From: Candidatus Gottesmanbacteria bacterium
GTDB taxonomy: Bacteria > Patescibacteriota > Microgenomatia > UBA10105 > UBA927
Length of the DNA: 64,000 nt
Reading direction: 5' to 3'
NCBI GenBank assembly: GCA_903821745.1
Contig: CAIJMI010000004.1
Coordinates: 152,404-216,403 of the forward strand
Part shown: positions 31,966-42,997 of the stretch, one piece after another
How positions within the stretch are numbered: position 1 is the stretch's first letter
Layout: every line of letters begins with the position of its first letter
Translations under genes and position numbers: made by a program
Notes under the pieces: generated by a model
Told to the model about the DNA's origin: nothing
The model's input: the letters and a program-made list of their open reading frames with translations, nothing else
The model's database searches: none

Positions 31966-32538
31966 ATGCCAGTGTATACACGAACGGGTGATGATGGAAC
32001 AACTGCACTGTTTGGAGGAAAACGCATCTTAAAATGTGAAGAACTCGTTGATGTGTATGGTTCCATTGATGAACTCAATAGCTGGATCGGCGTTCTTCTT
32101 GCAACAGACAAGAATCAAAGGGACAAGCAATTGTTTCTTGCAATACAACAAGATTTGTTTTTGATCGGCAGTGTACTTGCAGGATGGAAGGGTGATATTT
32201 CTCCACTTGGTAAGCGAATTTTAGAAATGGAACAGCATATCGATGCAATTGAAACAAAAGTGCCGAAAATCACAAATTTTATTCTTCCCGGTGGATCAAA
32301 GAGTGCATCGTATGTTCATGTAGTAAGAAGTATTACTCGACGTGTTGAACGGCAAATGGTTGCATTATTTGCAAAGGAAAAGAGTAGTACAGTACCTGAT
32401 AAAAATAATCAACGAAAAATGATTACGTATATCAATCGTTTGTCTGACTTGTTATTTATGATGGCAAGAGGTATAAATAAGACAGTTGGTATCAAAGAAG
32501 TTGTATGGAAAGGGATATCAACAAAGAGTAAAGAGTAG
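31966..32538 (+). CDS. PduO-type ATP:cob(I)alamin adenosyltransferase
   Basis: MPVYTRTGDDGTT signature N-terminus; 4 nt after the nrdJ stop. Confidence 0.85.
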   Translation: MPVYTRTGDDGTTALFGGKRILKCEELVDVYGSIDELNSWIGVLLATDKNQRDKQLFLAIQQDLFLIGSVLAGWKGDISPLGKRILEMEQHIDAIETKVPKITNFILPGGSKSASYVHVVRSITRRVERQMVALFAKEKSSTVPDKNNQRKMITYINRLSDLLFMMARGINKTVGIKEVVWKGISTKSKE

Positions 32539-32614
32539 AGGAAGGTTGTGTAACTCAATCACTGTGCCGCAACGGTAAAGTCCGGAACTCTTCTTTACCT
32601 ATCCCGAGCAGGAG
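32537..32614 (+). promoter_or_regulatory. Conserved riboswitch-like 5' leader, copy 1 (candidate cobalamin-responsive element)
   Basis: Duplicated about 1 kb downstream. Contains CACUG, a UGCCG-CAA-CGGUA hairpin, AAGUCCGGAA, and an ACUC tract complementary to the GGAG Shine-Dalgarno. Confidence 0.35.
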
Positions 32615-33061: not shown

Positions 33062-33582
33062 TACTTATGGAGATGATTACATTTACACTGATTGGTATTC
33101 TTTCAAGACTTGTGCCGCATATTCCAAACATGACTGCAGTGGGAGGTGCATCACTGTTTATGGGTGCAAAATTTGGTGTAAAGAAAAGCATGATCGTACT
33201 TTTTTTAACTATGCTGGCGACTGATAGTGTGAAAGGACTGCATTCTGTGATGTGGGCAACGTACGGATCATTGGTTCTTGCTATTTTGATCGGTAAATAT
33301 ATGGCATCAAAAAAAAATGCAGGGTGGATTATCGGAGGAACGCTGTTGTCTTCTATTTTGTTTTTTATCATTACAAATTTTGCTGTATGGCTTGCCCCGA
33401 ATTTTATGTACGCAAAAACCCTTTCAGGACTTGTGGACTGCTACATGATGGCAGTTCCATTTTTCAAAAATTCTCTCGCTGGCGATTTGATGTATTCAAG
33501 TATTTTTTTTGGTGGATACGCATTCGTTGCATCCATTAAACAAAAGATGATGATGTGTCAGGTCGGCCATAAAAACATATAA
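33058..33582 (+). CDS. Small polytopic membrane protein, ECF S-component/BtuM-like candidate vitamin transporter
   Basis: 174 aa with about six TM helices; 4-nt overlap with the DUF4430 gene. Confidence 0.4.
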   Translation: MILMEMITFTLIGILSRLVPHIPNMTAVGGASLFMGAKFGVKKSMIVLFLTMLATDSVKGLHSVMWATYGSLVLAILIGKYMASKKNAGWIIGGTLLSSILFFIITNFAVWLAPNFMYAKTLSGLVDCYMMAVPFFKNSLAGDLMYSSIFFGGYAFVASIKQKMMMCQVGHKNI

Positions 33583-33586
33583 AGGA

Positions 33587-33666
33587 AGAGGAAGGTTGTG
33601 TAACTCAACCACTGTGCCGCAACGGTAAAGTCCGATACTCCCCTTTATATTTTCCCGAGCAGGAGG
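33587..33666 (+). promoter_or_regulatory. Conserved riboswitch-like 5' leader, copy 2
   Basis: Shares a 22-nt block (1 mismatch), an identical 25-nt block and an identical CCCGAGCAGGAG block with copy 1. GGAGG lies 7 nt before ATG 33673. Confidence 0.35.
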
Positions 33667-33672
33667 TCCATC

Positions 33673-35301
33673 ATGTATTGCGTACCAGAAAAAGAAATTT
33701 CTCTTCTTACCTATAAAGATAAATATTCCACACTTCAAGAGATACATCCTGAATGGACGTCGCATGAACTTCGTTTAACAAGCGCCAGTGAACTCCGCTC
33801 CCAATTTCAGGCTGATCGTGAAACGGCTGCAAGAGAAAATTTAGGGTTGCCGATGATTGAAGTTCCAGAGGCAACATTTACTCTTACTGATGAAGGAACA
33901 GTCTGGTACCCAAACTATGGGAGTGGTGTTGGACTTGTTGAGTTGAGTGAACGACAAAAAAGGTTGCGGCCTGAGCATTATTCACCGGAAGAACACACCA
34001 TTTCATTATTAATAGAAGAACAATTTAAGCATGGAGCAACAGAAGTAGTAACAAGTTATGGAGATAGGGATGTGGTGATTATGAAGTATGATCCAAAAAC
34101 AAAAAAGGGGAAAACGGAGGTTATCAATACCGCGGTTGTAATGGAAAATGAATATAAACCCATGCAAGAATTTATCTCTGAACATTTTCCAAAATTAGAA
34201 TCAGTGCCCGTAACAAAAAGCATTTTTTTGTTTGCCGATAAAAAACTAATTGTTGAACATGCAACGGAAATAGTTCAACAAATGGTAAGAAAATCTGCTC
34301 GTATACATCAACTGCCATATGCTGAAAAAAGACAGAGAATAGCTATCACAGACCAGAAACAGGAATACCCCTATCTTCCGCCATTTATGAGCCATGATAT
34401 TTCTAAGACACATCATGAGGATATGATGCCTGTTGTAGAAACACAGCACTATCAGAGGTTGGATAGCAAACATGTGCAACAGAAAGAACAAACCATAGAA
34501 CGAGTTAAAGACCTCGTTCACAAGGACCAACAGAAGCAACGTATCATATCGTCCATTGAAGTGTCTCAAAAACCGGTGTTGGTGTTTCAATTTTCAAAAA
34601 AAACGGACGAGTATACAAAACAAATAAAACCATCCGTGACGGTCTATATGAGCGACCCAATCGTGGAAAATCAAATCGCGCGCCATATTTTGAAGAATGA
34701 CAAAATTGTTCCGTCGATGCAGCTAAAAGAGAATGATCCGCTGCCTGTGTTTTTGGAGAAGCCAAAACAAAAAGATGAACAAGCAATCACATGGGACAAT
34801 AGAGACCTAAAAGAAACGAAAGAAGAACCACATATAATGGTTGATGCACGTATAAAACAGAATGTTGTCATTGAACAAACGATCGAAGAATATTTTGAAA
34901 CTGGAGATACAAAAGAATCTATCGTGAAAATAGAACCAGCTGTTATTCGTTCTCTGTACGCGCCGTATATGTCTGAAATACCGTTTTTCGTTGATAAAAG
35001 ATCGGGTGTCATATCGGAAATTCAGAAGTTGTGTTGGATTTGTCCGTTAGTAGAGACAATGGATCAGCCTGAAATGTTGGAAGTGGAGATACCGAAAGAT
35101 CAAAATCAACGGTTATATAATTTATTACATTTCCTACAAAAGATTGTAAAAAAACAATTTGGTGAAGATCATATTAGACAGAGAACAATACAGGTCGTGA
35201 ACGCAGATGAATCAGATCGAGTGCGTGATGAAATTACATATTATCTAACACTCTTGGAAGAAAAGAATATGCGAATGCATATGTATGCGTTCGTGAACTG
35301 A
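33673..35301 (+). CDS. Large soluble hypothetical protein (542 aa)
   Basis: No TM and no recognisable motif; charged Lys/Glu/Gln-rich composition. Confidence 0.5.
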   Translation: MYCVPEKEISLLTYKDKYSTLQEIHPEWTSHELRLTSASELRSQFQADRETAARENLGLPMIEVPEATFTLTDEGTVWYPNYGSGVGLVELSERQKRLRPEHYSPEEHTISLLIEEQFKHGATEVVTSYGDRDVVIMKYDPKTKKGKTEVINTAVVMENEYKPMQEFISEHFPKLESVPVTKSIFLFADKKLIVEHATEIVQQMVRKSARIHQLPYAEKRQRIAITDQKQEYPYLPPFMSHDISKTHHEDMMPVVETQHYQRLDSKHVQQKEQTIERVKDLVHKDQQKQRIISSIEVSQKPVLVFQFSKKTDEYTKQIKPSVTVYMSDPIVENQIARHILKNDKIVPSMQLKENDPLPVFLEKPKQKDEQAITWDNRDLKETKEEPHIMVDARIKQNVVIEQTIEEYFETGDTKESIVKIEPAVIRSLYAPYMSEIPFFVDKRSGVISEIQKLCWICPLVETMDQPEMLEVEIPKDQNQRLYNLLHFLQKIVKKQFGEDHIRQRTIQVVNADESDRVRDEITYYLTLLEEKNMRMHMYAFVN

Positions 35302-39553: not shown

Positions 39554-40276
39554 TTGACTACCATTTGTGAAGATTGTTATCATGTAAGCATGTCTAGGCT
39601 ATCTGATCATGAAAAAGCGTTAGACTTACGTCGTAAAGGAAAAAGTTATTCGCAAATAAAGGAAACCTTGGGAATAAGTAAAAGCACTCTAAGTGATTGG
39701 TTACGTAATTATCCTCTGTCTAAAGAGCAAATGTATCTCCTTACAGGGAAAAGTGAGCAAAAAATTGAGCGATATAGGGAAACTCGATTACGAATAAAAA
39801 ATGAAAAATTTTCTATTGTGGTTGAGAATGAAAAGCATAAAATATTGCCAATTTCATTAAAAGAAATATTTATGGCTGGATTATTTCTTTATTGGGGGGA
39901 GGGCACGAAAGGGTCAAATTGCACTGTTAGTGTAAGCAATACAGATTATAGAGTAATAGATTATTTTGTTCATTGGCTAGAGGTTTGTTTTTTAGTGCCA
40001 AGAAAAAAAATAAAAATTAGTTTGCAACTATATAGCGATATGAATATAAATAGTGCAATAAATTTTTGGAAAAAGACATTACATATGTCATCGAAACAAT
40101 TTATAAAACCATATATTAAAAAGAGTATACAAAAGACAATAAATCAAAAAAATGGATATGGTCACGGAACATGTCAGGCATACATATATGACGTGAAGAT
40201 AAAAACACGGATAATGGCAGGATTTGAGGTCATATATAAAGAACTAGAAGAATATAAGAAGAAAACATATAATTAG
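39554..40276 (+). CDS. HTH domain protein with a single LAGLIDADG-like motif (candidate homing-endonuclease-like protein)
   Basis: N-terminal resolvase-like HTH (KSYSQIKETLGISKSTLSDWL); central MAGLFLYWGEGTKGS matches the LAGLIDADG motif. Confidence 0.45.
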   Translation: MTTICEDCYHVSMSRLSDHEKALDLRRKGKSYSQIKETLGISKSTLSDWLRNYPLSKEQMYLLTGKSEQKIERYRETRLRIKNEKFSIVVENEKHKILPISLKEIFMAGLFLYWGEGTKGSNCTVSVSNTDYRVIDYFVHWLEVCFLVPRKKIKISLQLYSDMNINSAINFWKKTLHMSSKQFIKPYIKKSIQKTINQKNGYGHGTCQAYIYDVKIKTRIMAGFEVIYKELEEYKKKTYN

Positions 40277-40284
40277 CAAGTAGA

Positions 40285-40356
40285 GCGCCCGTAGCTCAGC
40301 GGTAGAGCGCATGTCTTATAAACATGAGGTACTTGGATCGTCACCAAGCGGGCGCA
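40285..40356 (+). tRNA. tRNA-Ile (anticodon UAU), 72 nt, no encoded CCA
   Basis: Manual cloverleaf: acceptor GCGCCCG/CGGGCGC, D-arm GCTC-AGCGGTA-GAGC, anticodon stem CATGT/ACATG, loop CTTATAA, T-arm CTTGG-ATCGTCA-CCAAG, discriminator A. Confidence 0.8.
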
Positions 40357-40357
40357 C

Positions 40358-40885
40358 ATGGAACAAGTCATTTTAGTGGATGAAAATAATAATGAAATTG
40401 GTACTGCTGATAAGAAAACAGTACATACTACAACAACGCCGCTTCATCGTGCATTTTCACTGTTTATATTTAACGAAAAAAAACAATTACTTGTAACGAA
40501 ACGTGCTGCAAAGAAAAAAACATTTCCCAGCGTATGGACAAATAGTGTCTGCGGTCATGTATCACCAGGAGAAGAGACGATTGATGCAGCAATCCGGCGA
40601 AGTCAGGAAGAACTTCACATGGAAGTAGGACATGTTCACGAAGTATCCCCATACCGTTATCGTTTTGCTGATAAAAATGGCATTGTTGAAAATGAGATTT
40701 GCCCAATTTTTATTGGATTTACACATGTAGGTCCAATAGTAAATAAAAATGAAGTAGAGGATTGGAAATGGATTGATTGGAAAGAATTTATACAAATAAT
40801 TCAAGAACAACCTGGAACATATTCTCCCTGGAGTGAAGAAGAGGCAATTATACTTCAACGGATAAATCCGGAATTGCTTGGATAG
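40358..40885 (+). CDS. idi: Isopentenyl-diphosphate delta-isomerase, type 1 (Nudix fold)
   Basis: LHRAFS..F and TNSVCGH conserved regions align to E. coli Idi. Confidence 0.85.
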   Translation: MEQVILVDENNNEIGTADKKTVHTTTTPLHRAFSLFIFNEKKQLLVTKRAAKKKTFPSVWTNSVCGHVSPGEETIDAAIRRSQEELHMEVGHVHEVSPYRYRFADKNGIVENEICPIFIGFTHVGPIVNKNEVEDWKWIDWKEFIQIIQEQPGTYSPWSEEEAIILQRINPELLG

Positions 40886-41846
40886 TATGCCAATCTACAG
40901 ATTCTCCTTTAAAATACGCATACGATCCAATGTATGCAGCATTATCCGTGCACAGCGAAACGGGCGGACAAAAGAATGGAATATCACTCTGTTGGAATTT
41001 TTCCCGTAATCGTACATTTGCAGCAACGCCCCCACCGATACATATGGATTGTGCGTCATATAGTTCTGCTGCTTGGAGTGTTTTTGTTACAAGGACATCA
41101 GTAATGGATTCCTGTACTTCATATGCAAGTTCTCCGATGACTTTTTCATTAAATTCCGGAAGCCCTTTTTGTTTGATTACTTCCCGTAATATAGCTGTTT
41201 TAAGTCCGGAAAAAGAAAAATTTAATGTGTCATCATGAAGAAGCGGTCTTGGCAACTTTATTTTTGATTTTTTTCCTGCGGATTTTTGAATGGCAAGCCC
41301 CCCCTGTGAACCAAATCCTAAAAGTCGGGCCGCTTTATCAAATGCTTCACCTGCTGCATCATCCACCGTTCCGCCAAGCCAGGTAAGGTCTTTTTTATTT
41401 TTCATGAGAAATAATTCCGTGTGTCCGCCTGATACCACAAGCCCAATGGCCGGAAAAAGAATTGCGTGCTTTTCAGGCTGTTCAAGATAATTTGCGTAAA
41501 GATGTGCCAGAACATGATTGACTGGAATGAGTGGTTTGTTTGTGACAAAGGCAATTGTTTTTGCTGCTTCAACACCGATGAGCAGTGAACCAATTAGCCC
41601 TGGTCCGATGGTAACGGCAATCGCATCAATAGATTCATAACTTTGGTTTGCAGCAGTAAGTGCTTCAGTGATGACTGGTAATATACATTTTAACTGTTCT
41701 CGTGATACAACTTCAGGAACAATACCGCCGTATTTTTCATGCATGGCAGATGATGTAGCAATAATATTGCTTACAATTTTTGTGCCGTCTTGAATGACTG
41801 CTGCACTGGTTTCATCACAACTTGTTTCAATTGCTAAGATATTCAT
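40848..41846 (-). CDS. tsaD: tRNA N6-adenosine threonylcarbamoyltransferase TsaD
   Basis: MNILAIETSCDETS N-terminus; Kae1/YgjD motifs HMEAH-like and GGVAAN. Start trimmed to ATG 41846. Confidence 0.85.
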   Translation of the reverse strand: MNILAIETSCDETSAAVIQDGTKIVSNIIATSSAMHEKYGGIVPEVVSREQLKCILPVITEALTAANQSYESIDAIAVTIGPGLIGSLLIGVEAAKTIAFVTNKPLIPVNHVLAHLYANYLEQPEKHAILFPAIGLVVSGGHTELFLMKNKKDLTWLGGTVDDAAGEAFDKAARLLGFGSQGGLAIQKSAGKKSKIKLPRPLLHDDTLNFSFSGLKTAILREVIKQKGLPEFNEKVIGELAYEVQESITDVLVTKTLQAAELYDAQSICIGGGVAANVRLREKFQQSDIPFFCPPVSLCTDNAAYIGSYAYFKGESVDWHTIQAIPDLSVEV

Positions 41847-42997
41847 GTATGTGTTTGTTTTTTTAATTGTACTAATATGGCAATTCTTGGTAAGTAGAAT
41901 ACTTGAGAAATCAGCAATGCTATTGCAGGTGATGTCCAATCTGCAACAGCTCCAAGAAAGATAGAAAATATGCCAAAAACAATACTTCCAGCAAATGAGA
42001 CGATGGAGGAAAGAGTTGCTCGTTCATGTTCGGTAAATTCTTTGTGCATTAACGCATTGGAAGCAACACCAGTTGCACCAAATAGAAAGGATGTAGATGA
42101 CATAAGAACGGGGGATGCGACAGTTGGAAAAACAAGTGAGACGACGTTAATAACGCGGTTAATGATCGTATCAAATAACATAAGATTTAAACCGCCAAAT
42201 TTTTTAATTAATTTCCCTGCATACCAATAACTGATTCCGCCTCCTGCAAATGACAGGGCTTTTGAGATACCGATTGCCCATGTTGGCCACAATGTGGCAA
42301 TGAATGCCGATTTAAATTGGAACCCTGATTCGCCGACACCAAATCCAATAATCTCATCAAGACTGAGAAGCCGTAGATTTTTGTTGTGCCATATGTGTTT
42401 TATGGAACCCACAAGATGAGCATAGATATTCGTTGACATAGAAGCCTGTGTTTTTGGTTCTCTGACATATAAAGAAAGGAGAAGACAGATGACTTGCGGA
42501 ATAACGGATAGCCACATAACCCAGGAAAAAGAAAAGTAGGCAATAACACTTCCTATAACCGTACCAATGGTTAATGCTGCTTGAAACATTGCGCTCACCT
42601 TTCCAAGATAATGGTCATAGGTATCTACTTTTTTTAAATCACGAAGAGAATCATGCAGGAGTGCATCATTATTGCCACTATAGAATGCTCGACTGACTCC
42701 TTCAAAAATTGCACCAATTGCAAGAAAGACATAGGTTCCACCTATGGCATAACAGATAACGCTTAAAACTGCAGCACACGCTCCTGCAGTCATTGTTTTT
42801 CTCCGTCCAATTTTGTCTGAAAGAATACCAGTTGGAACTTCAAAAAAGGCAGACGATAGCATGGCCATGCTAAAAAGGCTCATTGCAAGTGCATATGAAC
42901 CAGTGATTTTTGCAAAATACAGAATTAAAATTGCACTATAAAAATTAAAATCTGTAAAGAAGTTAAATAGTGCAAGTAGCTTGATATTGCGCCCCAT
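41843..42997 (-). CDS. MFS transporter
   Basis: Twelve TM helices; GxLaDrxGrR-like motif (LSDKIGRRK). Confidence 0.8.
   Translation of the reverse strand: MGRNIKLLALFNFFTDFNFYSAILILYFAKITGSYALAMSLFSMAMLSSAFFEVPTGILSDKIGRRKTMTAGACAAVLSVICYAIGGTYVFLAIGAIFEGVSRAFYSGNNDALLHDSLRDLKKVDTYDHYLGKVSAMFQAALTIGTVIGSVIAYFSFSWVMWLSVIPQVICLLLSLYVREPKTQASMSTNIYAHLVGSIKHIWHNKNLRLLSLDEIIGFGVGESGFQFKSAFIATLWPTWAIGISKALSFAGGGISYWYAGKLIKKFGGLNLMLFDTIINRVINVVSLVFPTVASPVLMSSTSFLFGATGVASNALMHKEFTEHERATLSSIVSFAGSIVFGIFSIFLGAVADWTSPAIALLISQVFYLPRIAILVQLKKQTHT

Follow-up and report, generated by a model that had tools for sequence, protein, structure and literature searches.

A tRNA-Ile(UAU) with an exchanged 54-58 pair from a Microgenomates-type Patescibacterium, and its relatives

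How is the codon AUA read in a bacterium that encodes a tRNA with the anticodon UAU, and what is to be made of such a tRNA when its T-loop carries A54 and U58 in place of the standard U54 and A58? Both questions are raised by the single tRNA gene in a 64-kb stretch (64,000 nt, here called the window; GC content ~38%) of contig CAIJMI010000004.1, assigned to Candidatus Gottesmanbacteria. Our analysis favors, with a probability of roughly 80%, the reading that the gene is the native tRNA-Ile(UAU) AUA decoder of a Microgenomates-type Patescibacterium, with an elbow in which the 54-58 pair is exchanged and still paired.

The tRNA gene and its family

The only tRNA that ARAGORN identified in the window is tRNA-Ile(tat), at 40285-40357 (+), and the Rfam model RF00005 matched over its full length (model 1-71) to 40285-40356 with 62.5 bits (gathering score 29, E = 3.7e-11). 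The cloverleaf is also the minimum-free-energy (MFE) fold (-27.7 kcal/mol, z = -2.63). A first-pass annotation had folded the gene by hand, with the anticodon loop CUUAUAA and hence the anticodon UAU; all three analyses confirm this, and the ARAGORN check with the RF00005 score gave no indication of a pseudogene. The elements of the gene are as follows.

40285..40356, + strand: tRNA-Ile(UAU) gene, 72 nt (positions 1-73, residue 17 absent); ARAGORN, RF00005, MFE cloverleaf, and pairing across the family
40299, + strand: G15, the 5′ half of a non-standard Levitt pair, G15/A48; sequence
40317..40319, + strand: anticodon U34 A35 U36, reading AUA; sequence, ARAGORN, Rfam, and AUA usage
40331, + strand: A48, the 3′ half of G15/A48, in the variable loop AGGUA; sequence
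40337..40343, + strand: T-loop AUCGUCA, with A54 at 40337, U58 at 40341, and A60 at 40343; sequence

All stems are perfect, the acceptor being GCGCCCG/CGGGCGC and the T-stem CUUGG/CCAAG. The D-loop is AGCGGUA and includes G18 G19; the anticodon loop contains U33, A37, and A38; and the T-loop reads A54 U55 C56 G57 U58 C59 A60. The discriminator is the Ile-like A73, and the genomic bases after it are CAU, so that CCA is not encoded. These features, among them the inverted A54/U58 with G53-C61, C56, and purine 57 retained, can be read directly from the sequence, as the first-pass annotation had done. The elbow residues G18 G19, U55 C56 R57, and G53-C61 are thus all conserved; the molecule departs from the standard elbow at the 54/58 pair and at the R15/Y48 Levitt pair, having A54/U58 and G15/A48 (not G15/C48), and position 60 is a purine (A60). 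The Levitt pair and the purine at 60 had not been remarked on in the first-pass annotation.

When one genome per species was scanned for the D-arm together with CTTATAA, at least 120 loci matched. Among the 120 matches listed, 62 carry explicit Patescibacteria lineage names (at least 62 in all), 23 are third-party (TPA) assemblies, 9 are unnamed bacterial metagenome-assembled genomes (MAGs), and the remainder comprises 12 Streptomyces, 3 Firmicutes, 4 archaea, and 7 others; the nearest relatives by the tRNA itself, among these matches, are MAGs labeled Microgenomates or Patescibacteria. The 23 TPA MAGs are titled "uncultured Gammaproteobacteria" or "Pseudomonadales" (L008, L010, L012, L020, L047, L074, L088, L120, and others) and have UAU genes that are Patescibacteria-like. 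Their taxonomic labels look wrong, and that of L074 is implausible, L074 being syntenic with the window.

The family alignment comprises 87 distinct 72-nt tRNA-Ile(UAU) sequences among the matches listed. Across these, 99.4% of stem cells are paired (29.5-41.3% once the 3′ partners have been shifted by 1-3 columns), and double (compensatory) changes are found at 17 of the 22 stem pairs. At 54/58 the family has UA in 79 members, AU in 6, and other combinations in 2, with no single-sided intermediates. An A54/U58 clade is formed by the window, two genomes (L074 and L083), and two metagenomes (L217 and L244), all with the anticodon UAU and with T-loops AUCGUCA or AUCGUCC; position 60 is A in the window, L074, and L217 and C in L083 and L244. 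Within the clade the stems have changed with pairing kept, at 2-71 (C-G to G-C), 3-70 (G-C to A-U), 27-43 to 29-41 (CAU/AUG to GUU/AAC), and 49-65 to 51-63. In L074 and L217, the products of the genes next to the tRNA share only 51-93% identity with their window counterparts, so the swap has been retained over substantial divergence. The window gene is a functional, vertically inherited tRNA with an intact cloverleaf under purifying selection.

The family is variable at another elbow position: C55 replaces the "universal" U55 in 20 of the 87 distinct tRNA-Ile(UAU) sequences, with T-loops UCCGAUC, UCCGAAU, and UCCGAUU (L005, L013, L025, L028, L040, L041, L054, L068, L073, L076, L079, L108, L114, L120, and others). 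C55 is also present in Patescibacteria Gly, Arg, Val, and Thr tRNAs, and G55 in some of their Cys, Leu, Phe, and Gly tRNAs (UGCAAGU or UGCGAUU).

Decoding of AUA and the TilS alternative

AUA is in regular use: in 33 window genes it makes up 240 of 13,929 codons (17.2 per 1000, and 20% of Ile codons). When these genes are aligned with their orthologues, window ATA codons stand opposite ATT, ATA, or ATC 76 times, with Val or Leu codons next in frequency and ATG in 5 of 139. This alignment with Ile codons, together with the frequent use, implies that AUA means Ile and needs a decoder; by codon comparison, AUA behaves as an Ile codon. With the anticodon encoded as UAU, modification of C34 is not needed, and no other AUA decoder was seen in the window, which has this single tRNA. 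The E. coli Ile identity set, reportedly defined by Nureki et al. in 1994, consists of A73, A37, A38, C4-G69, U12-A23, and C29-G41. All of these are found in the window tRNA with the exception of the last, pair 29-41 being U-A rather than C-G.

Encoded UAU anticodons have been described before. In Mycoplasma mobile tRNA-Ile(UAU), U34 is unmodified and the isoleucyl-tRNA synthetase (IleRS) is adapted (PMC3575796); the tRNAscan-SE 2.0 paper lists tRNA-Ile(UAU) in 17 genomes of Bifidobacterium, Mycoplasma, and Neorickettsia (PMC8450103). The earlier statement that a UAU tRNA-Ile is uncommon therefore holds for cultured bacteria, on those 17 genomes, and fails for Patescibacteria, where the at least 62 labeled loci make it widespread and common. 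Among the papers searched, none ties tRNA-Ile(UAU), lysidine, or TilS to the candidate phyla radiation.

In the cultured Saccharibacterium Southlakia epibionticum, TilS (SEML1_0730) adjoins FtsH, and the gene table gives one tRNA-Ile (PMC10633639). Loss of tilS can therefore not be assumed for the phylum, in which UAU and TilS systems coexist (TilS in at least one member, Southlakia). A regular-expression search for SGGxDS found no PP-loop protein among the ORFs (open reading frames) of the window, none was seen in the 10 kb added on either side, and a Pfam scan of 20 window ORFs found neither TilS nor FtsH. With E. coli TilS as the probe, tblastn over ~1 Mb of related loci gave no match, which is uninformative since about one would be expected even if all the genomes were tilS-bearing. 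No IleRS gene was found in the window or among the fetched Patescibacteria loci.

The exchanged 54-58 pair and linked elbow residues

The first-pass annotation had proposed aligning related tRNAs as a check on whether the swap is lineage-wide, and this it is not. The tRNA-Asn(GUU) of the same contig has the canonical T-loop UUCGAAU. In the related genome L083, the Trp tRNA and one of two CAU tRNAs have a canonical UUCRA-type loop, and the second, initiator-like CAU tRNA has UGCGACU; U54/A58 is kept in all three. The swap therefore belongs to the window tRNA and not to the organism. Nor is it unique: a non-initiator tRNA-CAU of L047 has the loop AUCGUGC where a near-identical tRNA of L068 has UUCGAUC. 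The T-loop of L047's own tRNA-Ile(UAU) is canonical, and its tRNA-CAU swap is independent of that in the window clade.

Beyond this group, a pattern search (D-arm plus G53-A54-U55-C56-G57-U58) yielded well-formed A54/U58 tRNAs of many isotypes, at least 142 in metagenomes and at least 188 in viral contigs. How often the combination occurs can be seen from three sets of tRNAs that were not selected for their T-loop; the bases at 54/58 are as follows.

Viral tRNAs beside a canonical hit (n = 380): U/A 363, A/U 8, A/A 3, other 6
Non-pattern tRNAs in metagenome loci (n = 440): U/A 396, A/U 23, A/A 10, other 11, including U/U 1
Non-Ile(UAU) tRNAs of Patescibacteria-rich loci (n = 138): U/A 132, A/U 1, A/A 0, other 5

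A54/U58 is the commonest alternative to U54/A58 and accounts for ~2% of phage tRNAs. In the viral baseline, all eight U58 residues stand opposite A54 (8/8; Fisher p = 1.6e-14, relatedness uncorrected). Since U58 is found almost only with A54, 54-58 behaves as a pair, and in these alignments the two positions covary. The swap had at first been described as compensatory-looking; this pattern in sets unselected for the T-loop, and its inheritance in the orthologue clade, support that description.

The swapped form is present in cultured phages, in the tRNA-Met of Providencia phage PSTCR6 (MW057858.1 148700-148771; T-loop AUCGUUC) and the tRNA-Lys of Aeromonas phage PX29 (GU396103.1 95770-95845; AUCAUAC). 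Two metagenomic tRNA arrays compared with isolated phages by megablast gave no useful match; a short tRNA query did match. There are also two large families of single tRNA-CAU genes with the loops AUCGUGC, AUCGUGA, or AUCGUGG, one member coming from a human-gut contig. In 19 of 21 such cases TAnnTTTG, which we take to be the Bacteroides-type -7 promoter element, lies 20-45 nt upstream (2% of control windows); on account of this motif the families are probably Bacteroidota tRNA-Met. These two families, GGCGAGG... and GGCGGGA... (e.g., L179 5996-6070; loci L125-L244), are widespread single-copy A54/U58 genes, and a third A54/U58 CAU family (GGGCCCAUAGCUCAGCUGGUUAGAGCACCUGACUCAUAAUCAGG...; L145, L173, L215, L237, and L238) resembles E. 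coli tRNA-Ile2. In Bacteroidota, A54/U58 may be the normal state of Met and Ile2 tRNAs. Among the papers searched, none describes an A54/U58 T-loop class in tRNA.

In the metagenomic array L143 (4,092 nt; 9 tRNAs), A54/U58 occurs in six of the nine (Val, three Thr, Lys, and Gly), so that it is close to array-wide in some phages. We claim no enrichment among tRNAs of the AUN box: Ile-GAU was observed six times in arrays against 2.9 expected, which is suggestive and confounded by the D-arm pattern. A 95-nt UAU tRNA with a long variable arm (class II shape) and the T-loop AUCGUAA recurs in GC-rich phage-like arrays (L134 1181-1275, L148 459-553, L171 1080-1174, and L208 1604-1698); AUA would be an odd codon for a tRNA of Leu or Ser shape.

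Two further elbow positions change with the swap, as judged from counts of distinct sequences among the matches listed, which are not independent events and are in part ascertained by the D-arm. Position 48 is a purine in all five members of the A54/U58 clade (A48 in the window, G48 in the other four); among the 81 family members with U54/A58 or C54/A58 it is C in 80 and U in 1, and the one additional A54/U58 member, from the phage-like array L224, has C48. More broadly, purine 48 among G15 tRNAs occurs in 25/201 with A54/U58 versus 32/911 with U54/A58 (p = 3e-6), and purine 60 in 97/237 (41%) versus 43/1546 (2.8%). R15/R48 is accompanied by R60 in 29 of 32 A54/U58 tRNAs and in none of 47 U54/A58 tRNAs. 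Most of the G15/R48 cases among A54/U58 tRNAs (17 of 25) are tRNA-Ile, with GAU in phage arrays and UAU in Patescibacteria. Positions 54/58, 60, and 48 thus tend to change together, an observation to test and not a proven rule; the window tRNA carries the full set (A54/U58, A60, and G15/A48).

Other remodeled elbows were seen in the same material. The tRNA-Asp of Acinetobacter phage AB1I1M-1 (OQ627712.1; L486 3080-3155) combines A15/A48 with the loop AUCGAAA (A54/A58/A60), which is the eukaryotic tRNA-Ala/initiator combination reported to be unseen in bacterial tRNAs; AUCGAAA or AUCGAUA loops are also found in several metagenomic arrays. The initiator-like tRNA-CAU of Patescibacteria (CGCGGGGUAGUGUACAGUGCAC...) has a short D-loop without the G18 G19 doublet and T-loops CGCAACU, UGCGACU, and UUUCGAU (L012 5873-5942, L026 4752-4821, L036 1792-1861, L083 4176-4246, L047 3382-3450, L068 2682-2750, and L103 722-791), which suggests that the elbow of the initiator tRNA has been remodeled in this phylum.

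Genomic setting, rival readings, and known systems

Three ORFs surround the tRNA gene.

39554..40276, + strand: HTH-domain ORF between an ATP-grasp gene and the tRNA; Pfam HTH_23; missing in the syntenic L074
40358..40885, + strand: NUDIX-family ORF, 175 aa; Pfam NUDIX, 4.2e-20; context only, outside tRNA function
40848..41939, - strand: TsaD (t6A37 enzyme) ORF, convergent with idi; Pfam TsaD, 4.2e-83; called as 332 aa

The NUDIX ORF (40358..40885) is probably an isopentenyl diphosphate (IPP) isomerase (Idi), from its resemblance to E. coli Idi. The neighborhood is a housekeeping one, with a type IV secretion system (T4SS)-coupling-like ATPase, ATP-grasp, NUDIX/Idi, TsaD, a major facilitator superfamily (MFS) transporter, a cytidylyltransferase, a VanW-like protein, a solute-binding protein, and GroES/GroEL. 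The order T4SS-like ATPase, ATP-grasp, tRNA, idi, TsaD, MFS is common to the window and L074; the HTH ORF, without a counterpart in L074, looks inserted. The idi ATG of the window starts 1 nt past the 3′ end of the tRNA, which leaves no space for a ribosome-binding site outside the tRNA. A conserved tRNA-to-mRNA punctuation at the idi start was considered as a general feature and rejected, the spacer in L074 being 24 nt.

TsaD had been pointed out as encoded 0.5 kb away. The position is right (the ORF ends 492 nt downstream of the tRNA, on the opposite strand) and tells nothing about the tRNA: TsaD is universal, and for this reason and its strand its adjacency is incidental, so a functional meaning of the proximity was rejected. 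Next to the orthologous tRNA of L083, where ORFs are unannotated, there is no ORF of TsaD size. Of the 10-kb extensions, the left adds one tRNA, a canonical tRNA-Asn, and the right adds none. No integrase or phage genes were found among the scanned flanking ORFs, and the marks of a mobile tRNA are missing here: there is no tRNA array, no phage or integration genes flank the gene, and it is the sole tRNA in 64 kb.

Elsewhere in the window are two AdoCbl-II riboswitch aptamers, at 32528-32598 (+; 39.0 bits) and 33569-33648 (+; 42.6 bits). Immediately upstream of them lie a class II (B12-type) ribonucleotide reductase and a PduO-type adenosyltransferase. The first aptamer is followed by DUF4430 and DUF6580 genes and the second by an unannotated 542-aa ORF (33673-35301).

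As a native AUA decoder, the window tRNA would be charged by IleRS through A73, A37/A38, C4-G69, and U12-A23, and U34 would pair with the A of AUA. A54 and U58 would stack as a pair on G53-C61 and shape the 59-60 bulge, most simply as a reverse-Hoogsteen pair in which each strand takes the role usually played by the other, and the junction with the core would be adjusted by residues 60 and 48; the combination probably recurs in nature, having arisen independently in other tRNAs. Having A54 and U58, the tRNA cannot carry m5U54 or m1A58, an exclusion that may be either the cause of the variant or a by-product. Several points weigh against this account. Were each strand to keep its edge, the swapped pair would not be isosteric with the standard one, and an in vivo selection by Zagryadskaya et al. 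in 2003 is said to have returned U54-A58, G54-A58, and G54-G58, not A54-U58. Furthermore, all counts take related sequences as independent, and several sets were ascertained by a D-arm pattern that favors Ile, Met, Lys, Asn, and Thr tRNAs.

The strongest competitor, although an unlikely one, holds that the A54/U58 elbow (with A60 and R48) has been selected as a signal and is not just a tolerated alternative, evading readers of U54/A58 (TrmA/TrmFO, TrmI, possibly TruB, or T-loop-directed toxins) or marking the tRNA for a dedicated partner. It would account for the retention of the swap across relatives with 51-93% identical proteins, for the coordinated changes at 60 and 48, and for a frequency that is highest in phage tRNAs (~2% unselected, up to 6/9 in L143), where evasion of host factors is plausible; A54 and U58 do bar m5U54 and m1A58 chemically. 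However, no partner protein or nuclease was identified in the window, only some tRNAs per genome are swapped, by no consistent rule, and the many isotypes (Met, Ile, Lys, Asn, Asp, His, Gly, and others) in unrelated hosts fit a neutral alternative equally well. A bolder version is similarly doubtful, namely that A54/U58 with R60, often with R15/R48, is a distinct initiator-like elbow, repeatedly evolved and selected in Patescibacteria, Bacteroidota, and phages, and that this tRNA is the sole, TilS-independent AUA decoder here. If it were true, tRNA-Ile and tRNA-Met especially would be escaping m5U54, m1A58, possibly Psi55, or T-loop-directed nucleases.

Much less probable still is a horizontal origin, in which a phage or mobile element supplied the gene and it would not be the native AUA decoder of its host. 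A54/U58 is abundant in viral contigs, phage tRNA-Ile(GAU) genes have the same 72-nt architecture with G15/G48 and A60, an HTH gene is inserted directly upstream, and a T4SS-coupling-protein-like ATPase lies nearby; yet the D-arm and the CUUGG/CCAAG T-stem match Levy-, Roizman-, and Gottesmanbacteria copies with canonical loops, and the locus, set among housekeeping genes, shares synteny with L074, with no integrase or phage genes in the scanned flanks. Three further explanations are effectively excluded. A decaying, non-functional copy or an assembly artefact might be suspected from the deviation of three near-universal nucleotides (54, 58, and 48) in one molecule, but the gene scores 62.5 bits with all stems perfect, four independent assemblies share UAU and A54/U58 with compensatory stem changes, and AUA is heavily used with no other decoder seen. 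Codon reassignment, with the tRNA charged with another amino acid (e.g., Met, as in many mitochondria), would draw on the capacity of U34, in principle, to read both AUA and AUG; against this stand the 76 alignments of ATA with ATT, ATA, or ATC and only 5 with ATG, and the Ile features A73, A37, A38, C4-G69, and U12-A23. We therefore retain the native decoder as the preferred reading.

By textbook standards the window tRNA is unusual; for its lineage it is fairly ordinary. Nothing in it is categorically new, the AUA decoder belonging to the known tRNA-Ile(UAU) kind and the T-loop to a recurrent minority class. Descriptions so far have treated the direct reading of AUA by an encoded UAU anticodon as a curiosity found in a few reduced genomes; it is common across Patescibacteria, a phylum which, with both a UAU tRNA and TilS, is a natural system for asking how U34 avoids AUG. 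The 54-58 pair has been treated as nearly invariant U-A; the natural swapped form covaries, with linked changes at 60 and 48, and its presence in cultured phages and probably in Bacteroidota makes structural rules of the T-loop testable in existing organisms. For annotation, A54/U58 tRNAs should not be flagged as pseudogenes.

Among known systems, the window tRNA resembles the tRNAIle3 of Mycoplasma mobile, Bifidobacterium, and Neorickettsia (PMC3575796; PMC8450103) in its encoded UAU, its reading of AUA without lysidine, and its A37/A38/A73; it differs in its A54/U58 T-loop and in coming from a phylum where the UAU gene is widespread and not sporadic. The usual bacterial system, tRNA-Ile2(CAU) with TilS (lysidine), serves the same codon, whereas here the anticodon is encoded as UAU. 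Patescibacteria tRNA-Ile(UAU) genes with canonical or C55 T-loops (e.g., L047, L013, L025, and L108) have the same 72-nt architecture, the loop CUUAUAA, no CCA, the same D-arm (GUAGCUCAG(C/U)GGUAGAGC), and often the CUUGG/CCAAG T-stem; they have U54/A58, C48, and Y60, in contrast to the A54/U58, R48, and (in three of five) A60 of the window clade. Other A54/U58 tRNAs (phages PSTCR6 and PX29, phage tRNA-Ile(GAU) arrays, and the Bacteroidota-type tRNA-CAU) share A-U-C-R-U-N-N, G53-C61, U55, C56, R57, and a frequent purine 60; their anticodons and hosts differ, and most keep G15-C48.

The closest parallels to the elbow as a whole are eukaryotic. Initiator tRNA has A54/A58 and A60, and tRNA-Ala(AGC) combines R15/A48 with A54/A58 and purine 60, a set reported absent from bacteria (PMC7912444; PMC7566577). 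The window tRNA shares with these A54 for U54, purine 60, and a purine-purine 15/48, the last as in tRNA-Ala. It is, in contrast, a bacterial tRNA without the extra D-loop residue, and its position 58 is U rather than (m1)A, giving a swapped A-U in place of a long purine-purine pair.

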